A stretch of 20,880 nt of DNA from a virus (taxonomy: Duplodnaviria > Heunggongvirae > Uroviricota > Caudoviricetes): the IMG/VR virus record IMGVR_UViG_3300029080_000072. One strand, 5' to 3'. A program made the position numbers and the translations under genes. This document shows positions 2,849 to 18,713 of the stretch, piece after piece. Below the pieces are notes generated by a model. That model saw nothing but the letters and a program-made list of their open reading frames with translations. It did not search any database and was not told where the DNA came from. Positions within the stretch are counted from its first letter, which is position 1. The number at the start of each line of letters is the position of its first letter.

Positions 2849-3142
2849 ATGAAAAAAATGTTGTTTTCTGCCGCTCTGGCAATGCTTATTACAGGATGTG
2901 CTCAACAGACGTTTACTGTTGGAAACAAACCGACAGCAGTAACACCAAAGGAAACCATCACCCATCATTTCTTCGTTTCGGGAATTGGACAGGAGAAAAC
3001 TGTTGATGCAGCCAAAATTTGTGGCGGCGCAGAAAATGTTGTTAAAACAGAAACCCAGCAAACATTCGTAAATGGATTGCTCGGTTTTATTACTTTAGGC
3101 ATTTATACTCCGCTGGAAGCGCGGGTGTATTGCTCACAATAA
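2849..3142 (+). CDS. bor: Bor lipoprotein (serum-resistance moron)
   Basis: MKKMLFSAALAMLITGCAQQTFTV...GIYTPLEARVYCSQ has a lipobox LITGC and is near-identical to lambda Bor. I chose ATG 2849; the tracked start at 2801 is a non-ATG upstream extension. Confidence 0.92.
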   Translation: MKKMLFSAALAMLITGCAQQTFTVGNKPTAVTPKETITHHFFVSGIGQEKTVDAAKICGGAENVVKTETQQTFVNGLLGFITLGIYTPLEARVYCSQ

Positions 3143-4344: not shown

Positions 4345-4842
4345 AACCCCACCTCGCAGACAAAGCGGGTGTAAATTGAGGGAATACAACGTATCGCAAA
4401 AAAGCAGAAACGTAACAGACTCGGAGTCAGTGAATAACTCAGGTATTGAGTTATCAGCTAATATCGAGACTCAAAAAATGGAAAAACCAGCTCGACGGCG
4501 GGTTTAAGCTGTGTGACGAAGTAACCACTCTTAACAGCATAACCAATTTTTTACGTACGTAAACCACTGAATGATATTTATGAGAATGCTACCGAGTGTT
4601 CAAAACACCACCACAAATACATAAGAAAACCTCAACAAATAACCAATAAATAATTTCAGACGTTATTTTTAGTTGATTTAAATTAAACTGCCGAATTATA
4701 GAACCTCCATAAATAACAACCATTAATATAAATTAGCTAATAGGTTTATTTTTGTTCAAATAAGAGCCATAAATAGGTTTCGATAGAAAAAGTTCAGATA
4801 AAAATAGAGATCTACTTCACAAATTAAATGAGAAACTAAAAC

Positions 4843-4862
4843 TTACATCTTGAAATAATCAC
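4843..4862 (+). promoter_or_regulatory. Possible OmpR-box-like element in the porin upstream region
   Basis: TTACATCTTGAAATAATCAC resembles the remembered ompC C1 box TTTACATTTTGAAACATCTA. It lies ~75-90 bp upstream of the porin ATG within a 540-bp AT-rich ORF-free region. Confidence 0.25.
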
Positions 4863-4932
4863 ATTGATTAGATGAATATTTATCGCGCAGTGACATCATT
4901 TTTTAATAATAGTTCAAAAAAAAGGGCTCACG

Positions 4933-6015
4933 ATGAAAAAATTAACAGTGGCAATTTCTGCTGTAGCTGCATCAGTACTGATGGCGATGTCTGCTCAGGC
5001 AGCTGAAATTTATAATAAAGACAGTAACAAGCTGGATCTATATGGGAAAGTTAATGCCAAGCACTACTTCTCCTCTAATGATGCAGATGATGGTGATACT
5101 ACTTATGCCCGTCTTGGCTTCAAAGGTGAAACCCAAATCAACGATCAACTGACTGGTTTCGGTCAGTGGGAATATGAATTCAAAGGCAACCGCGCTGAAT
5201 CTCAAGGCTCCTCCAAAGACAAAACCCGTCTTGCATTTGCAGGCCTGAAATTCGGGGACTACGGCTCAATCGATTACGGCCGTAACTACGGTGTAGCATA
5301 TGACATCGGTGCGTGGACTGACGTTCTGCCAGAATTCGGTGGCGATACCTGGACCCAAACAGATGTGTTCATGACTGGTCGCACCACTGGTGTTGCAACT
5401 TATCGTAACAACGACTTCTTTGGTCTGGTTGATGGTCTGAACTTTGCTGCTCAGTATCAGGGTAAAAATGACCGCACTGACGTAACTGAAGCTAATGGTG
5501 ATGGTTTCGGTTTCTCCACTACTTATGAGTATGAAGGATTCGGTGTAGGTGCAACCTATGCTAAATCTGACCGCACTAATAATCAGGTTATCTACGGTAA
5601 CAACAGCCTGAATGCATCTGGTCAAAATGCTGAAGTATGGGCAGCTGGTCTGAAATATGATGCGAACAACATCTATCTGGCTACCACCTATTCTGAAACC
5701 CAGAACATGACTGTTTTTGGTAATAACCATATTGCCAACAAAGCACAAAACTTCGAAGTAGTTGCACAATATCAGTTCGACTTCGGTCTGCGTCCGTCCG
5801 TTGCTTACCTGCAATCTAAAGGAAAAGACTTGGGTGCGTGGGGTGATCAGGACCTGGTTGAATATATTGATGTAGGTGCAACCTATTACTTCAACAAAAA
5901 TATGTCCACTTTTGTTGATTACAAAATCAACCTGATTGATAAGAGCGATTTCACGAAAGCATCTGGCGTTGCTACCGATGATATCGTTGCTGTAGGTATG
6001 GTTTACCAGTTCTAA
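4933..6015 (+). CDS. nmpC: General-diffusion porin of the NmpC/Lc/OmpD type. It is an intact moron, antisense to the late operon.
   Basis: 360 aa with signal peptide [23 protein letters not shown]|AEIYNKD. Porin hallmarks are [36 protein letters not shown] and the terminal ...VAVGMVYQF. It sits between Q and the holin, opposite in orientation, as nmpC does in DLP12. Confidence 0.92.
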
Positions 6016-6176
6016 TTTGATTACTAAAAGATATGTTGCGGGAGGCTTTGCCTCCCCAACATATAAGTGGCTCCCTCAAGCCACTTCCTTTAGGAGCACA
6101 ACCTTGCTTCTAACTATATAAACCTTCTGTTATATATTACCCTTTATTTTTGGGGGCGTTGCAACGCCCCATTTTT
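6016..6176 (+). ncRNA. ipeX: IpeX-like sRNA region immediately 3' of the porin gene
   Basis: The ~160-nt ORF-free segment after the porin stop has an internal imperfect hairpin (~6031..6065) and ends in a strong terminator (6152..6176). From memory, the DLP12 IpeX sRNA (~167 nt) maps directly downstream of nmpC. I could not verify sequence identity. Confidence 0.4.
6152..6176 (+). terminator. Rho-independent terminator of the porin/IpeX-like transcript
   Basis: GGGGCG-TTGCAA-CGCCCC followed by ATTTTT. Confidence 0.75.
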
Positions 6177-6203
6177 AATAATTTTTAGTAAACAATTGGC
6201 ATA

Positions 6204-6587
6204 TTAATTAGAGTTATTAACAACGATATCCATCTCTAACCGGATATCTAATGCCATTAACATCCCTTCAATTATGCCCTCAGCCTTCTGTAACCTTTTC
6301 CCGATATAACCATCAGAGCAGCAATGCTTACCTGCCAGTGACATGAATGTCATACCGACTACATAATAATCTACTAATAAATCGTGCAAATCGCTGTTGT
6401 TCTTTTTCAGACGGGCCATGCACCCGCAAATAATCATCGCGTCATCGTCACAACATTGCGGGCGAGATTTTACTTTTGAAGTAATTAATCCCTTAAAACC
6501 GGCGGCAATGGACGACCAGGTCACATCTTCATGATTATTAGCCGCCCACGCTCCCCAACGCTCAAGAACCATCTGAATATCACGCAT
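6204..6587 (-). CDS. quuD: Late-gene antiterminator Q (phage-21/DLP12 QuuD type)
   Basis: [60 protein letters not shown]... matches remembered QuuD (127 aa). ATG 6587 is preceded by GGAG. Confidence 0.85.
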
Positions 6588-6672
6588 CAACTTACTCCAC
6601 AAAAATCAGACCAGAACGCCAATTACAAGCAAAAATCAACAAAACAGTATTAGTTGATTGTTATCTCTGACT

Positions 6673-6813
6673 TCATACTCCTGCTCCTGTCAGGGTTTTG
6701 GCGTAATTCTTCAGTATTCGGTAATCGGTCAAAACAGAACCGGGGAAACGATATAAGCGCAGATGCCCCCAGCGGTGGCGAAGAAGTTCTGCCATATAAA
6801 ACTCAAACATCAT
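6673..6813 (-). CDS. ylcG: YlcG-like 46-aa protein (below the track's size cutoff)
   Basis: My own translation gives [46 protein letters not shown]. The start overlaps the rusA stop (gaATGAtg). It sits between rusA and Q, as in DLP12. Confidence 0.7.
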
Positions 6814-7172
6814 TCATTCCCCATTTCGGTGATGGTCAGTTCCAGCCTCCCACCTTTGGTAACAGGCATCTTCACAACGCGGTAATCAACGACCTGAGCA
6901 TCATCCAGCCAGAAACCTGCTTTGGTGAGTGCGTCAAAAGCGGCTTTTTGCAGATTATCCAGGTCACGGCGACGGCGATCCGGCATGTGGCACTCAATAC
7001 GGATTTTCACTGGCATAGCCAGGCCGATATCCAGCATTGCGTTTTTAATGATTCGGGTGACGTTATCGCGGTATGCCTGCCCTTCTGCGCTGATGTGCGT
7101 GCGCCCGCGATTATGGCGGTAATAGCGATTATTGCTCGGAGGCCAGGGTAATGTGATGCTGTAGGTATTCAC
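6810..7172 (-). CDS. rusA: Holliday-junction resolvase RusA
   Basis: 120 aa: [37 protein letters not shown]...[30 protein letters not shown]... This is near-identical to remembered K-12 RusA. A GTG start overlaps the ybcO stop. Confidence 0.93.
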
Positions 7173-7459
7173 GCCTTAATAACCCCCTCTTTCAGCCAGA
7201 TAACCTGTGTTCTCGCCATACCTTCCAGCGCGCATTCTTTTGCATATGCAGCATCGACAAAATGTGTGCGGCGGTCGATTTCGTCGTGGCAGGCAGAACA
7301 TGCAATGGTGGCAATCAGGTCTGGCGGTTTGATACCGGTACCGCACAATCCAGCCAGCCGGATATGTGCCAGTACAGACGTTTCAGAATTGCCATTACAT
7401 ACGCCAGGGATTCTTACCTGGCATTCCCGACCACGCGCTGCTTTTCTCAAATCAGCCAT
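7169..7459 (-). CDS. ybcO: YbcO (DUF1364) putative nuclease
   Basis: [64 protein letters not shown]... is 96 aa and matches remembered YbcO. ATG 7459 overlaps the ninE 3' end. Confidence 0.85.
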
Positions 7460-7622
7460 GATTCCTCCTTGCTGCCAGTCGCAACCATTTTTTATCAACC
7501 AGGCTGGCGGTATATCCGAGCAGAGTTGGTATTTCGGATGGCTTCAGCTCAGGTTTACGCTTACGACGATTTGGTACTTTGTAGATGTGTCCGTTCATGA
7601 CACGAATAAGCGGTGTAGCCAT
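7452..7622 (-). CDS. ninE: NinE
   Basis: [56 protein letters not shown] is 56 aa. There is a TAATG overlap with the ybcN stop. Confidence 0.85.
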   Translation of the reverse strand: MATPLIRVMNGHIYKVPNRRKRKPELKPSEIPTLLGYTASLVDKKWLRLAARRNHG

Positions 7623-8077
7623 TACGCCTCCTGCTTGTCGCGCAGCAGCTGGAACTCGCAGCGCTGCGGAATAGTCAGGTGGCAACCAATATTCATCGCC
7701 CAGGCTTCAACCTTACACAGGAAGACATACATCTCTCCGGTATCAAGATCGGAGGTATGGCGTAACGACTGGATAGTGGTGATATCACCGGTTACGACAT
7801 CAACCAGTTCTTTGGTTTCATAACCGAGATAAGTGTGTTTCAGAGCATCCTTCACCCACTCTGGCGTAGCGAAAGTCTTACCCCGGCTGATGAGGTATTC
7901 GCTGATTTCGGTGTACCACATGTGGCTTAAGCTATTTTGAGACAGGCTGCGCTTATCGCGCCATGGCTTCAGTACCATGCGGAAGCACTTGCCGTCCTCC
8001 AGATAAGGCTGGAGCTGCTGACCGATAGCGGTGAAGTTACCGCGATGAAGTTTGATGCCGTCTTGTGGGAGGTTCAC
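7622..8077 (-). CDS. ybcN: YbcN-family protein (NinB-position DNA base-flipping/recombination-associated protein)
   Basis: 151 aa: [55 protein letters not shown]... This matches remembered K-12 YbcN. It has a GTG start with a GGAGGTGA RBS. Confidence 0.85.
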
Positions 8078-8198
8078 GCTTCACCTCCGCAGAGGTCAAA
8101 CGCTGGATGCAAAAAATCGCAGGTGCATTTCTGCATCTGTGGCGGGAGAAGAGAGTTTAGATTGTATGTGCGCATAAACGTCCCCGTTTAGCGCAGAA

Positions 8199-8227
8199 GT
8201 CACCGGAGTTGTTCAGGCTCCGGTGAC
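8199..8227. other. Perfect 10-bp-stem hairpin in the ybcN-island intergenic region
   Basis: GTCACCGGAG-TTGTTCAGG-CTCCGGTGAC. No clear U-run follows on either strand, so it is not called as a terminator. Confidence 0.4.
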
Positions 8228-8337
8228 ATGATTATGGCTGGTTGATTATAGAAAATCAAAAACCTTTTATGGCAACAAAAAAACGCCGAGGGAGGTACGC
8301 CAGTTAATTTATGGAAGAAAATGCCCCAGATGGAACG

Positions 8338-8967
8338 CTAAAACAAGGATAAACTTTGCCCTGCTCCAGGCGTTGGCTTTACAAATGTTACATCTTTAAT
8401 TCTTTCGCCTAGGAGAAAAAATTTGTCCAAAGATAGCGATGGTATTGTTGCAAACCCATCAGCCCCCTTTTTCCTAGCAACCCCTCTCACGTCCATGAGA
8501 ATTCGCCCTAATACGTTCATACCATAATAGTTACCTTCTGGGTCTTTACTGGCACCCCAGAATTGGTCCTTCTCTGAGTGTTCCACGATGAAATGGTCGC
8601 CTGTACTGTCTAACAGCGCAAAGAACGTATCCCAGTTCTGGCATAATTTTACGCATACACACCACTTCATAATCGAAACTCGATTCTTATCCCATCCTGC
8701 GCGAGTTTTGGATTCAAACGATCTTGCGGTCTGCTTGGCTTCATAGGGGTTTCCTTGAGTAATGATGGCCTTTTGTATATCCGGATAGTCTGGATATCGG
8801 CATGCTTGGTAAAGGATTTCACTTGATTGAATAGGCAACCCATTGATTAACAATGGATATCCTTTAGCCATGTTGGAAAGCCCCCCCCATTTTTCGGTGG
8901 TTTTCCTGAAGGAAACTGTGTTCTGTAGCGGATATAATCTATAGCTCATACCACTCATTATACCCAT
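8338..8967 (-). CDS. NADAR-domain (YbiA/DUF1768-family) protein; predicted N-glycosidic ribosyl/ADP-ribosyl hydrolase
   Basis: 203-209 aa, with in-frame ATGs at 8967, 8958 and 8949. NADAR signature blocks are WGGLSNMA, IQSSEILYQACRYPD, GNPYEAKQTARS, GWDKNRVSIMKW, LLDSTGDHFIVEHSEKDQFWGA and YGMNVLGRILMDVR. It overlaps the upstream ORF's 3' end by 11-29 nt. Confidence 0.75.
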   Translation of the reverse strand: MGIMSGMSYRLYPLQNTVSFRKTTEKWGGLSNMAKGYPLLINGLPIQSSEILYQACRYPDYPDIQKAIITQGNPYEAKQTARSFESKTRAGWDKNRVSIMKWCVCVKLCQNWDTFFALLDSTGDHFIVEHSEKDQFWGASKDPEGNYYGMNVLGRILMDVRGVARKKGADGFATIPSLSLDKFFLLGERIKDVTFVKPTPGAGQSLSLF

Positions 8968-9970
8968 TCCGCTTCATTAGTGGATACCAGCAGTCCAATG
9001 CGGGAGCACCTGTTGGTTCATAATCTCCCCACCAAAAAGCCAGCGGCACATTATTCGGGCAATTTCGATAAGTAAATGTTGTTCCCCCAAAACCCAAACC
9101 GTCAAAAGTAGAAAAACCTAGAGGTTTGAGCACCTCACTAGGGGTTTTCCTGTGCAGCAAGATATTAAAGCCGACTTTAGTAAGGATAGATTCGAAACGA
9201 TCCCTTGAGGCTTCATTTCTAAAACTATCAGAAGAGGCATATCCATCTCTGAATACGCCTTTGTAAAGCTCACACTCCTCGAATTTCTCGGGAGTATCTA
9301 CACTATATTTCCTTGGCCAGAAAACACCTGATTGAGCAGAACGACTTTTTCGGTTTTCAACCTCACGCATACCACCATTCTTCACGTGTACAAAAATGTT
9401 TCTATCCTTAAAAATATATTCTAATCGTCTTTTTATATTATAGTCAGATAACGTATGAGATGAAAAAAAATATACATTGAATTTAATATCTCTTAAATTA
9501 AATTTTAAAACAAAATTACTTATCGATTTGATGGCCTTTTCTCCTGAAAACGACACATCATCAATATATACAAATGTATCAAATTTATTTACTTCATCTT
9601 GAGTTGATGATTCAGTAACGATGTTAAATTTGATCCCTACTGTTTCATAAAGAGATTTAAGCAATTCCTTCTGACTAGAACCTTTTTTTTGAATATCTAA
9701 AAAACCTGCATATCTGAAGAATTTCGCGTTCTTTTCACTTCTTGCAATGGCTTTTATTTTTCGTTGATATTGACTTTCGGATAGGTAACCTGCATTAAGT
9801 AGATAAAGCGTTTCATCTAAGATAAATCGTCTATCCTCCACTGCAAATTGCTTAATCCATTTGCTGACATGTTCAGAGTTCATACCTTCAGCCGGAGGAT
9901 ATTTATAATCGCTCAACTTTTCAGCAATTTTATTGATTACTTTTTCACCAGATAAAATATTCGAGGACAT
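8939..9970 (-). CDS. Hypothetical 343-aa protein with a phosphoribosyltransferase (PRTase)-like core; candidate effector/toxin
   Basis: This long ORF in very AT-rich DNA has an AGGA RBS 6 nt before ATG 9970. Residues 132-145, TFVYIDDVSFSGEK, form a hydrophobic strand, a DD pair and a small-residue loop, like the PRPP-binding loop of type-I PRTases. The N-terminal ~110 aa look helical. The C-terminal W/G-rich region (GFGGTTFTYRNCPNNVPLAFWWGDYEPTGAP) is unassigned. The coding call is confident; the functional call is tentative. Confidence 0.55.
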   Translation of the reverse strand: MSSNILSGEKVINKIAEKLSDYKYPPAEGMNSEHVSKWIKQFAVEDRRFILDETLYLLNAGYLSESQYQRKIKAIARSEKNAKFFRYAGFLDIQKKGSSQKELLKSLYETVGIKFNIVTESSTQDEVNKFDTFVYIDDVSFSGEKAIKSISNFVLKFNLRDIKFNVYFFSSHTLSDYNIKRRLEYIFKDRNIFVHVKNGGMREVENRKSRSAQSGVFWPRKYSVDTPEKFEECELYKGVFRDGYASSDSFRNEASRDRFESILTKVGFNILLHRKTPSEVLKPLGFSTFDGLGFGGTTFTYRNCPNNVPLAFWWGDYEPTGAPALDCWYPLMKRNGYNEWYEL

Positions 9971-10086
9971 AAAAATTCCTTTTCACAACACAGAATCTAA
10001 AAAATAAGAATACTTTTATTTATTTCAAGTATAGACCGTATATTCAACTACTTTTTTTTATAGTAGGGAGATACCGATCACAATTT

Positions 10087-10143
10087 TTAGATATCTAATG
10101 TGATGGTTTAATAACCAGCAGTCTTACGTGTTAATTCACGTAA
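10087..10143. promoter_or_regulatory. Two dyad symmetries upstream of the island operon (candidate operator sites)
   Basis: A perfect 12-bp palindrome TTAGATATCTAA lies at 10087..10098. An inverted repeat TTACGTG-N6-CACGTAA lies at 10124..10143. Both are in the 210-bp AT-rich gap between the methylase stop (10182) and the island start (9970). Confidence 0.3.
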
Positions 10144-10181
10144 AAAAACTCATCAAACCTTCCTCTTTTCAGTTAATTCTT

Positions 10182-10766
10182 TTAAGAATAAACATCAGTA
10201 ACTCGGGCCGGGCTTAATGCTACGGTTGGCGAATCACACTTGTTTCCCCATACGTCGAAACCGTGGGAGGATTTACGCGCAAAGAGCTCAATACGTGGAA
10301 GATTACCCAGCAACCGAACCAGCATTTCACGCACGCAGTCTGGTTTACGTGAGTGCTCATGTCGCGGCGAGGTGTAGTGCTGGATGATCGAGGCGTCCTG
10401 CTGTGGTGCCCGCTTACCCTTTACCGCGAAAAGACAATCTTCACGGTTCGCCCGGATCAGGTGTCCCATTCCCATCGCCGATTTGTCAGTTTGCTTCGGG
10501 TAGGTTTTATCCCAAGTGAAACCTTTCATTGTGATCAGGCGAAATCCCCAGGCATCGACGACTTTCATCGCCTCGAACGTTTGAGTTGGCAACCACCACA
10601 TCGCCAGCTGGCAGCTTTCTGCAACCCGCTCCCTTACTGGCAGCCAGCAGATATCCTGCACCGTCATAACCAAGTATTTATGCCCGGTGCCACGCTTACC
10701 AGAATTGCATTTATCCTCGTACGTCCAGGGCGGATCCGCTTAGATCAACGTGTATTTCTTGTTCAT
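10182..10766 (-). pseudogene. MT-A70-family DNA N6-adenine methyltransferase interrupted by an in-frame TAA at codon 9
   Basis: My own translation from ATG 10766 gives MNKKYTLI*ADPPWTYEDKCNSGKRGTGHKYLVMTVQDICWLPV...EHSRKPDCVREMLVRLLGNLPRIELFARKSSHGFDVWGN. The stop (minus-strand TAA, plus 10740..10742) replaces the Tyr of the I-Y-A-DPPW catalytic block. The tracked 163-aa ORF (10182..10673) lacks DPPW. Confidence 0.75.
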
Positions 10767-12467: not shown

Positions 12468-13007
12468 TCATATTGCCCCCAGCATGGTGGTGACCATCGC
12501 CATCAATGGACCAGCCAGATCCGGGTCCACTCGAAACATCGACACAATGCCTTCACTCATCTCCTTCAGTTTCTGGTGGCGTGGTGCGTTGAGAATGACC
12601 GCCTGCTTTGCCTCACAGAGTTCCTTTTCCATTTCAGCCAGCCGAGCCATGAAGCTATCCTGCTCAACCAGGTGGCCGCGATATTCCAGCGGTAGTACCG
12701 CCAGAATTGCCGGGGTCAGTTCACGCACGTTATTTCGGTATTTTTCAGAATCGAATTTGTTATCGAGGAAGCGGAACAGCTTCTGGCGTGCACGGCTGAC
12801 ATCATCAGGGAAATCGATAGTGCCGCCGCCCTGCTCCCGATACTCATTCACAATGAGTGTGGCAACGACATCCTGATTATCTTCAGCCGACCAGGCGCGG
12901 ACGGCATCACGGATTTTTTCGTGGCCTGGCACCTGTTTTGTTTGAGAACGATTTATCACCGCAGTCGGGCTAAATCCGCTAGTCTGTTGGTATGTAAGTG
13001 GTTGCAT
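12468..13007 (-). CDS. YdaT-family protein in the cII position (putative CII functional analogue)
   Basis: 179 aa with an AAGGAG RBS. The segment VATLIVNEYREQGGGTIDFP...LTPAILAVLPLEYRGHL resembles remembered Rac YdaT (...ITEEYLRQGGGELP...LIPAILAILPRELRHRL). It lies between the cro-like gene and O. Confidence 0.6.
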   Translation of the reverse strand: MQPLTYQQTSGFSPTAVINRSQTKQVPGHEKIRDAVRAWSAEDNQDVVATLIVNEYREQGGGTIDFPDDVSRARQKLFRFLDNKFDSEKYRNNVRELTPAILAVLPLEYRGHLVEQDSFMARLAEMEKELCEAKQAVILNAPRHQKLKEMSEGIVSMFRVDPDLAGPLMAMVTTMLGAI

Positions 13008-17497: not shown

Positions 17498-17652
17498 CGC
17501 ATCCTCACGATAATATCCGGGTAGGCGCGATCACTTTCGTCTACTCCATTACAAAGCGAGGCTGGGTATTTCCCGGCCTTTCTGTTATCAGAAATCCACT
17601 GAAAGCACAGCGGCTGGCTGAGAAGATAAATAATAAACAGGAGGATATATGA
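17494..17652 (+). CDS. 52-aa ORF, lambda orf60a-like with a replaced C-terminus (below the track's cutoff)
   Basis: My own translation gives [55 protein letters not shown] 17494 overlaps the exo stop (ATGA) and its stop overlaps the next ATG (ATATGA). The N-terminal ~45 aa match my memory of lambda orf60a, which follows exo. Confidence 0.5.
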
Positions 17653-18713
17653 GTCAGGTTGGTAATCATTCATTCGAATTTCCGGCATCGCAAGGTGTAC
17701 AGGGTGGTACTGTTACACTCTTCCTTACCATACCAGGAAGATCGCTGGCTCGTTTCCTCGCTTCAGATAATTACGGCCATACACTGGAACGCTCTCAGCG
17801 AGAAATTAATCCAAATCGAGTACGAAAATTTTTAAATTATCTCACTAACGCAGACTCAAGAAATGAGTCTTTTATCATTCCCCCTCTCGTAGGTAACTGT
17901 GATTCGAATATAGAATTTGTACCGTTTGGCAACACAAATGTTGGTATAGCCAGAATTCCCCTCGACGCCGAAATAAAACTTTTTGATGGCCAACATCGTG
18001 CAGCTGGCATTGAGATATTTTGCCGAAGTTCCCCATCAACGCTCATGGTTCCCATGATGCTTACAATGAATCTGCCGCTAAAAACCCGGCAGCAGTTCTT
18101 TTCGGACATAAATAACAACGTTTCTAAGCCATCAGCGACCATCAATATGGCGTATAACGGCCGGGATGATATTGCTCAGGGAATGATATCCTTCCTGACC
18201 CAACATACTGTATTTGCCGATATAACCGATTTTGAACACAACGTAGTGCCATTAAAAAGTAATATGTGGGTGAGTTTCAAGGCACTCACTGATGCAACGT
18301 CAAAGTTTGCTAGGAACGGCAATCAACAACTTGAAATGGGATATATAGAATCTGTCTGGGAGGCATGGATTACACTAACTCAGATTGACTCAATCCGACA
18401 TGGTGTACACCACGCTACGTACAAGCGCGATTATATTCAGTTCCATGGAGTAATGATTAACGCTTTCGGTTTTGCGGTTCAACAGATGATGGTTAATCAT
18501 TCCATCGCAGAAATAACTTCTATGATCGAAAAACTCTGTGCAACTACCAGCTCTGCAGAAAGAGAGGATTTTTTTCTGATGGATAACTGGGCGGGGATCT
18601 GCACGAAAGCCAGCCAGGAAAAACTATCGGTTATTGCCAATGTGGCAGCGCAGAAAGCAGCAGCAAACAGACTGATACAAGCTTTTACCAAAGGAAGTCT
18701 GGAAACAACTTAA
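17649..18713 (+). CDS. DGQHR-domain protein (DndB/ParB-Srx-like superfamily), stand-alone
   Basis: 354 aa with the literal DGQHR motif at residues 113-117 (KLFDGQHRAAGIE, nt 17985..17999). Upstream is QREINPNRVRKF and downstream is FFSDINNNVSKPS, as in DndB-type proteins. It has a helical C-terminal half, AGGAG RBS and AT-richer composition than bet/exo. Confidence 0.8.
   Translation: MSQVGNHSFEFPASQGVQGGTVTLFLTIPGRSLARFLASDNYGHTLERSQREINPNRVRKFLNYLTNADSRNESFIIPPLVGNCDSNIEFVPFGNTNVGIARIPLDAEIKLFDGQHRAAGIEIFCRSSPSTLMVPMMLTMNLPLKTRQQFFSDINNNVSKPSATINMAYNGRDDIAQGMISFLTQHTVFADITDFEHNVVPLKSNMWVSFKALTDATSKFARNGNQQLEMGYIESVWEAWITLTQIDSIRHGVHHATYKRDYIQFHGVMINAFGFAVQQMMVNHSIAEITSMIEKLCATTSSAEREDFFLMDNWAGICTKASQEKLSVIANVAAQKAAANRLIQAFTKGSLETT

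Follow-up and report, generated by a model that had tools for sequence, protein, structure and literature searches.

Among described anti-phage systems, retron type III-A employs a phosphoribosyltransferase (PRTase)-like effector, which in Retron-Eco11 (type III-A3) leads to depletion of phosphoribosyl pyrophosphate (PRPP) and abortive infection (PMC12746101), and proteins with a NADAR domain are known as antitoxins that hydrolyse N-ribosyl bonds (PMC11125620). The pairing of a PRTase with a NADAR protein as a system was found in the searchable literature only in the DefensePredictor papers of DeWeirdt, Mahoney and Laub (bioRxiv 10.1101/2025.01.08.631726; Science 2026, PMC13092281), under the name DS-32 ('DefensePredictor discovered System 32'). 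Here, we analysed such a gene pair in the virus record IMGVR_UViG_3300029080_000072, a stretch of 20,880 nucleotides referred to below as the window, and found, with hardly any room for doubt, that it is DS-32, i.e. a two-gene anti-phage system, which was acquired horizontally and lies as an independently expressed insert within the nin region of a defective DLP12-like prophage. The cassette is already known: it is published, validated and annotated in databases.

The first open reading frame (ORF1, 8939..9970 on the minus strand in the ORF call on the window) encodes a 343-aa PRTase-CE protein that is 100% identical to DS-32A (WP_000097610.1). The second, ORF2, would start from its first ATG at 8967 and yield 209 aa (8338..8967, minus strand), but RefSeq and the published record both use the third ATG at 8949; the resulting 203-aa YbiA-type NADAR N-glycosidase (8338..8949) is 100% identical to DS-32B (WP_032260665.1). 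Both proteins are also recognized by NCBIfam equivalog models, ORF1 by NF053875 (DS32_1_antiphage; 312.7 bits, cut-off 250, with residues 12-334 aligned to the entire profile) and ORF2 by NF053876 (DS32_2_antiphage; 257.4 bits, cut-off 240). The published unit of 1633 nt has the same gene order and the same 11-nt overlap, and we observed no difference at the sequence level; only the strain differs, the window matching E. coli E94 (NZ_CP119740.1 2916049-2936928) at 100% identity and the paper having used the strain of assembly GCF_003333945.1. RefSeq already annotates both genes, in its newest annotation as 'anti-phage protein', while PADLOC v2 (2023) holds no DS-32 model and a literature search on 'PRTase-CE' found no papers. 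The first-pass annotation of this DNA had described the pair as an undescribed module matching no named system, which does not stand in view of these identities.

The DS-32A/B sequences and the plating data were taken from the supplementary tables of the Science version (PMC13092281; plating in Table S7). Cloned with its native promoter and upstream region on a low-copy plasmid in MG1655, DS-32 was active against phages (PMC13092281), with a -log efficiency of plating of 3.70 (~5,000-fold) for Bas26, a T5-like Epseptimavirus, and 1.60 (~40-fold) for RB69 (Table S7). Plaques of T5, SECphi18 and Bas67 were smaller, and the result is listed as replicated (PMC13092281). The same papers noted a resemblance of DS-32B to the NADAR antitoxin of DarTG but none of DS-32A to DarT, and suggested a swap of toxin-antitoxin partners as a possibility (PMC13092281). 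The first-pass annotation had thus been right to suspect a prophage-borne defence cassette.

In the window, ORF1 is followed directly by ORF2 on the same strand, the gene order of DS-32 as one unit, and the stop of ORF1 and the RefSeq start of ORF2 share 11 nt (ATGAGCTATAG, 8939..8949, minus strand; read from the sequence and the RefSeq coordinates), a junction of the translational-coupling type. Chance reading frames are ruled out, because PF24390 (PRTase-CE) scores 134.9 bits on ORF1 (cut-off 27; 5.9e-39) and PF08719 (NADAR) scores 82.4 bits on ORF2 (cut-off 35.1; 5.7e-23), and profile E-values of 1e-77 to 1e-93 likewise reject them. The GC content is 0.356 for ORF1 (0.30 in its 5' half) and 0.433 for ORF2, compared to ~0.51 in the flanking prophage genes and 0.465 in the whole window. 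The lowest of these values, 0.275, belongs to the 211-nt leader upstream of ORF1 (9971..10181, minus strand), which probably provides the cassette with a promoter and a ribosome-binding site of its own: AAAGGAA, a putative ribosome-binding site, lies 7 nt ahead of the ORF1 ATG, and a promoter scan returned the sigma-70-like site TTGAAA-16-TATTTT (10028..10001, minus strand). This site is only suggestive, because the number of promoter-like sites did not exceed the expectation from shuffled sequence. An inverted-repeat scan of the leader returned just one trivial 10-nt pair, at the methylase stop, and directly 3' of the ORF2 stop lies a weak terminator-like hairpin with a T-rich tail (8323..8336, minus strand), a consensus match with a 5-bp stem and three GC pairs. 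An Rfam scan of the window gave no match to an RNA family.

The window spans a defective DLP12-like lambdoid prophage, in which the cassette forms an AT-rich insert within the nin region. The replication gene P and an MT-A70 methylase pseudogene (10182-10766) lie on one side and ybcN-ninE-ybcO-rusA (6810-8077) on the other. Coordinates, GC values and neighbourhood annotation bear out the earlier description of two overlapping minus-strand reading frames, richer in AT than their flanks and placed between the P-methylase block and ybcN-ninE-ybcO-rusA, and the notion of a slot for variable cargo fares equally well. Indeed, the majority of other E. coli genomes lack the cassette, their match being limited to the ybcN-proximal 60 nt of the queried region. 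A family member is present in 62 of 5,426 complete E. coli genomes, 19 with the allele of the window and 43 with a diverged second allele, which in the one genome inspected lies at the same place in the nin region, between P and ybcN. In this genome, E. coli LR-51 (L002 7934-9567; 42 other genomes carry the second allele), DNA similarity to the window is ~78% and restricted to the NADAR gene and the 3' quarter of the PRTase gene, and the two genes are separated by 2 nt instead of overlapping. A single damaged copy was seen among the 19 genomes with the allele of the window, in E. coli 23CRST001 (H49; NZ_AP045758.1 3635918-3637390), where the 5' end of the PRTase gene is missing or displaced, an IS4-like element lies nearby and the NADAR gene is intact. 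Such an asymmetry is expected if the PRTase is the harmful partner, to which this one case lends weak support.

DS-32A begins with a helical N-terminal region (~1-87), continues with the type I PRTase core (~88-206) and ends in a C-terminal region specific to the family. The sequence TFVYIDDVSFSGEK at residues 132-145, where the first-pass annotation had placed a PRPP-loop motif, contains the loop VYIDDVSFSG, with a hydrophobic strand, two acidic residues (D137/D138), small residues and a glycine. Both aspartates are invariant in a 69-sequence alignment, and residues D137, S99, G293, F294, R302, C304, P305, N306 and W313 are invariant in 80/80 sequences (79 loci and ORF1). The C-terminal region carries GFGG...YRNCPNNVPLAFWWG, of which the block G293-F294-G295...R302-N303-(C304)-P305-N306...W313-W314-G315 is invariant in the 69-sequence alignment; GFGG at 293-296 and PNNVP at 305-309 make up the Gx14PNNxP hallmark of the PRTase-like effectors of retron type III-A. 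An AlphaFold2 (AF2) model built from 69 homologues (pLDDT 93.4, pTM 0.90) is predicted to adopt the type I PRTase fold with its five-stranded core, which together with the PRTase-CE match agrees with the PRTase-like character assigned on first pass. Only ~137 residues of ORF1 align in this fold comparison, the helical N-terminal and the C-terminal regions being family-specific. Searching PDB sequences with a profile of the ORF1 family gave no match, so that the PRTase core is seen by fold comparison only, as no solved structure is detectable by sequence. The only PADLOC match of ORF1 is the retron PRTase_III-A (7.5e-11, nearly full length). From the conservation of the motifs and the PRPP depletion by the homologue of Retron-Eco11, we infer that DS-32A would catalyse a PRPP-dependent reaction.

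DS-32B is, judged from its sequence, almost certainly an active N-glycosidase. In addition to the NADAR match, which agrees with the first-pass assignment, ORF2 aligns with E. coli YbiA (2b3w; E 2e-11) and matches the riboflavin-intermediate N-glycosidase model TIGR02464 with 70.4 bits; its only PADLOC match is PDC-M42C. An alignment of 81 PRTase-linked NADAR domains shows 58 positions with at least 90% identity, and E44, Y47, Q48, R51, K72, W86, E123, D128, W131 and G132 are at least 98% conserved. E123, in ...IVEHSEKDQFWG... and 98% conserved, is the Glu of the last strand by which the YbiA family is recognized (PMC11125620). With its NADAR domain and the conserved motif residues including this Glu, DS-32B belongs to the YbiA family.

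Is the pairing of both genes a common feature of the family? Scanning 185,579 species, each represented by one genome, with a family-specific motif plus tblastn yielded 304 ORF1 relatives. We inspected the neighbourhoods of the best 80 of these 304 genome hits, which span many bacterial phyla and of which many are metagenome-assembled genomes. In 80/80 loci a NADAR gene lies directly downstream of the PRTase gene on the same strand, abutting or overlapping it, and the same order was found in 38/38 IMG/VR viral contigs, i.e. in 118/118 cases altogether, as well as in the individually inspected loci. The pair is thus one co-inherited unit, as had been proposed from the window, and abutting or overlapping junctions are the rule among related loci, although the overlap lengths reported in the survey are upper bounds because the ORF caller takes the longest frame. 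In the reverse direction, a PRTase-CE gene stands before NADARs with 84% and 55% identity to ORF2, and those with 43% and 38% identity occur in other contexts, which gives a clean boundary. Within the same 79 loci, the mean pairwise identity is 0.60 for the NADAR domain versus 0.44 for the PRTase. A tblastn search of ORF1 against 50,697 INPHARED phage genomes gave no match, so the cassette is known from prophages and IMG/VR contigs and not from isolated phages. The enterobacterial DS-32 proteins are outliers, with identities of 0.47 and 0.30 to a large environmental clade. In Enterobacter mori LMG 25706 (L008 4998-8668), an orphan PRTase-CE copy (76% identical to ORF1) is followed first by an MT-A70 methylase remnant and then by a second, complete PRTase-NADAR pair; the arrangement suggests that the cassette was rearranged or duplicated, so that a single NADAR serves two PRTases. 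On an Enterobacter-type contig (L091 424-3606), the pair adjoins an HTH_3/Peptidase_M78 (ImmA/IrrE-like) gene, suggesting carriage on another kind of mobile element.

The survey also exposed fusions of the NADAR domain to subunits of restriction-modification (R-M) systems. While the NADAR protein stands alone in 57/80 loci, it is long (>~500 aa and up to ~1,400 aa) in the other 23, in two of which the frame is cut by the contig end. All 15 of the ~700-aa proteins tested combine an N-terminal NADAR domain with Methylase_S (HsdS) above the Pfam gathering score. The operon hsdM, PRTase-CE, NADAR::HsdS, hsdR occurs in 18/80 loci of very different lineages, among them the isolates Rhodoferax antarcticus ANT.BR (L084) and Alkalilacustris brevis; hsdR was seen within the fetched flank in 14 of the 18, and no S gene other than the fused one seems to lie between hsdM and hsdR. 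NADAR::HsdS loci are L021, L026, L028, L029 (=L003), L031, L034, L039, L042, L057, L061, L064, L065, L068, L069, L079 and L084, with the NADAR frame at ~5900-8300 in each. A second fused class, in 4/80 loci including Bradyrhizobium sp. 139, has NADAR proteins of 1,200-1,400 aa (L037 5884-9807, L051 5854-10050, L060 5900-9559 and L074 5884-9771). In the three tested (L037, L051 and L060), NADAR is fused to DUF1156 and a DNA methyltransferase (MTase); all four are preceded by a SNF2-helicase/NOV_C gene, and a DUF499 ATPase follows downstream in two, L037 and L060, in L060 together with a HEPN_Swt1 domain. All R-M-embedded PRTases retain D137. The cassette of the window is not part of an hsd or R-M operon and has no adjacent hsd genes, in contrast to these 18 + 4 of 80 related loci. 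A search of the accessible literature found no report of NADAR::HsdS or NADAR::DUF1156-MTase fusions, and the fusion of NADAR to R-M specificity or methyltransferase subunits is apparently unreported.

How does DS-32 compare to the systems that the first-pass annotation had named as its closest analogies, i.e. retron PRTase effectors, DarT-NADAR and ShosTA? These proved to be the right ones, and each differs from DS-32 in a defined way. With retron type III-A (PMC12746101), DS-32 shares a homologous PRTase-like protein, the PRPP loop, Gx14PNNxP and defence against T-even and T5-like phages; it differs in its obligate NADAR partner, in having no reverse transcriptase (RT) gene in the annotated neighbourhood and in lacking a winged-helix domain in the Pfam scan. 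A retron was accordingly rejected: the neighbours are the MT-A70 pseudogene, P, ybcN and NADAR, the Rfam scan found no retron non-coding RNA, and NADAR is downstream in all 118 relatives. With DarT1-NADAR and YarT-YbiA (PMC11125620), the order of an enzyme gene before the NADAR gene, the erasure of an N-ribosyl linkage by NADAR and the defence or toxin-antitoxin context are shared, but DS-32A is predicted to have a PRPP-dependent PRTase fold instead of being an NAD-dependent ADP-ribosyltransferase (ART), and DS-32B carries the YbiA-type Glu (E123) versus the Asp of DarT1-linked NADARs. Pfam, PADLOC and fold comparison gave no ART match for ORF1, so DarTG was discarded in spite of the NADAR encoded downstream. 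ShosTA (PMC11961720) likewise is a two-gene anti-phage module with a PRTase-domain toxin, in which purine/PRPP metabolism is disturbed and a second hydrolase is coupled to the PRTase. In ShosT, a pyrophosphatase is joined to a PRTase in one protein, and ShosA binds DNA and counters ShosT toxicity by stimulating DNA repair or recombination (PMC11961720). The Pfam scan found no pyrophosphatase domain in ORF1, ORF2 is not ShosA-like, and the PADLOC scan revealed no ShosT or ShosA homology, which excluded ShosTA.

Two further systems show a likeness. PrrC-EcoprrI (PMC1484252) is an effector module inside a type I hsd operon, a likeness that exists in the relatives and is absent from the window; PrrC is an anticodon nuclease regulated by its ABC-ATPase, whereas the R-M-embedded relatives have a PRTase whose partner forms a covalent fusion with HsdS. 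E. coli K-12 encodes the NADAR protein YbiA beside YbiB, a PRTase-fold nucleic-acid-binding protein, in the LexA-controlled dinG-ybiB/ybiA region. YbiB presumably represents a different PRTase class, TrpD2. Its DNA binding and PRTase activity are only predicted (PMC11125620), and, unlike a mobile defence cassette, the region is a housekeeping locus under SOS control.

The writer/eraser or toxin-antitoxin logic suggested on first pass is a reasonable hypothesis. As a whole, we tentatively favour, at somewhat less than even odds, a PRPP-consuming effector restrained by a NADAR N-glycosidase. DS-32A would be an active type I PRTase-fold enzyme, homologous along its length to the effectors of retron type III-A, which uses up PRPP by moving ribose-5-phosphate to an N-nucleophile and, when unrestrained, starves nucleotide synthesis so that infection is aborted or slowed. 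DS-32B would be a catalytically intact NADAR that takes the place of the retron RT and its multicopy single-stranded DNA as the obligate partner; it may restrain DS-32A by hydrolysing the N-(5-phosphoribosyl) product, and perhaps also by binding DS-32A, as an enzymatic antitoxin like the NADARs of DarT1-NADAR and YarT-YbiA. The chemistry fits, because 5-phosphoribosylamino riboflavin intermediates and ADP-ribosyl-guanine, on which NADARs are known to act, are both N-linked ribose-5'-phosphoryl compounds (PMC11125620) and belong to the product class of PRTases. Infection by T5-like or T-even phages would shift the balance to DS-32A, possibly triggered by helicases of the D10/UvsW type. Indeed, Retron-Eco11 is triggered by T4 UvsW and T5 D10, both of which co-purify preferentially with its effector (PMC12746101), and DS-32 and Retron-Eco11 restrict the same two phage groups.

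Several points weigh against this restrained-effector mechanism. The source papers of DS-32 offer no mechanism (PMC13092281), and the effector of Retron-Eco11 alone is not toxic and lowers PRPP by only ~50% (PMC12746101). The fusion of NADAR to a stable R-M subunit, seen in about a quarter of the loci, is a poor fit to a simple trigger by a labile antitoxin, and the higher conservation of NADAR than of the PRTase would be unusual for a mere antidote.

The fusions could instead point to nucleic acids as the target. In this unlikely but still serious alternative, DS-32A would phosphoribosylate DNA or RNA bases from PRPP, a modification not yet described, and NADAR would clear the adducts from self; by analogy with DarT1-NADAR, defence would then act via modified phage DNA or replication intermediates. 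ADP-ribosyl-guanine in DNA is a substrate of NADARs (PMC11125620), and a 5-phosphoribosyl base is that adduct minus adenosine monophosphate. In line with a DNA target, NADAR is fused to DNA-recognition or modification modules in 23/80 loci (HsdS in 15/15 tested, DUF1156-MTase in the three tested), K-12 ybiA lies in a LexA-controlled operon with the predicted DNA-binding, PRTase-fold protein YbiB, and the effectors of retron III-A carry or recruit winged-helix DNA-binding domains (PMC12746101). On the other hand, no DNA-binding domain is detectable by Pfam in DS-32A or DS-32B. To our knowledge, characterised type I PRTases act on small-molecule nucleophiles. Furthermore, the sole consequence measured in a homologue is the fall of PRPP (PMC12746101). 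For the family at large, we regard as slightly less probable again a DNA-directed PRTase-CE/NADAR dyad, in which base phosphoribosylation is erased by a NADAR tethered to the R-M system, which could add an R-M-coupled second level to self/non-self discrimination or guard against anti-restriction.

The two enzymes might also cooperate rather than oppose each other, which we consider quite unlikely. Here, DS-32A would make an N-(5-phosphoribosyl) compound and NADAR would hydrolyse it to regenerate the acceptor, so that the net reaction, switched on by infection, is PRPP + H2O -> ribose-5-phosphate + pyrophosphate (PPi). Such a cycle is consistent with the strict conservation of both active sites, with the obligatory coupling of PRTase and NADAR in 118/118 cases and with the stronger constraint on NADAR than on the PRTase. 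YbiA-family NADARs indeed hydrolyse 5-phosphoribosylamino compounds (PMC11125620), as the TIGR02464 match would suggest for ORF2, and ShosT similarly couples a PRTase to a second, product-removing hydrolase, the pyrophosphatase (PMC11961720). However, retron III-A effectors deplete PRPP without a NADAR (PMC12746101), and the decayed copy of E. coli 23CRST001 lost the PRTase and kept NADAR, as expected if only the PRTase is harmful. A constitutive cycle would moreover be toxic, so that an extra switch is needed, which counts against it.

A PrrC-like role as a guard or back-up effector of R-M systems seems improbable for the cassette of the window. The module would watch an R-M complex or another DNA-transaction machine and fire when a phage anti-restriction factor or helicase perturbs it, the free-standing E. 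coli form being a derived version that senses a phage factor directly. The 18 hsd-type operons in unrelated phyla and the second class within operons of SNF2-NOV_C, DUF1156-MTase and DUF499 genes argue for such a role, and a precedent exists in PrrC, which is latent with the type Ic enzyme EcoprrI and activated by the T4 inhibitor of EcoprrI (PMC1484252). Against it stand the 57/80 loci with a stand-alone NADAR, the absence of hsd genes adjoining the cassette of the window and the fact that DS-32 works alone in MG1655 (PMC13092281). Finally, a counter-defence or metabolic pair that helps the prophage by clearing ADP-ribose-type lesions or signals or by salvaging nucleotides, the alternative raised on first pass, is very improbable, because the identical published clone restricts phages in naive MG1655: the cassette is prophage-borne and phage NADARs are reported to neutralise DarT1 (PMC11257639/PMC11825919), but relatives sit in R-M operons and small mobile elements and none was found in the 50,697 sequenced phage genomes.

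The prophage carries further genes of interest around the cassette. The MT-A70 family DNA methyltransferase gene upstream of it (10182-10766, minus strand) is a pseudogene with an internal stop, of which an intact 163-aa ORF fragment matches PADLOC MTase_II (4e-54). Between a Cro/CII-like regulator gene and the replication genes lies a gene for a YdaT toxin-domain protein (12468-13007, minus strand). An orphan DndB-like gene with a DGQHR domain (17649-18713, plus strand; PADLOC DndB, 1.6e-37) is located in the early-left operon, between exo and a TraR/DksA-family regulator gene upstream of xis/int. Its vicinity holds no further dnd or dpd genes, and the gene may be another cargo or anti-defence gene. 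Positions 2849-3142 and 4400-6015 hold further prophage cargo, the serum-survival lipoprotein gene iss and an ompC-like porin gene, the latter preceded by a very AT-rich stretch (GC ~0.30 at 4600-5000).

In summary, as a discovery claim the cassette carries no weight, DS-32 having been published already. The remaining interest rests on the mechanism and on the apparently unreported fusions of NADAR to R-M subunits. The question is by what means a PRPP-dependent enzyme and an N-glycosidase jointly block T5-like and T-even phages, and the survey makes it more tractable, given the obligatory pairing, the conservation of both active sites and the repeated wiring to R-M systems via NADAR fusions.

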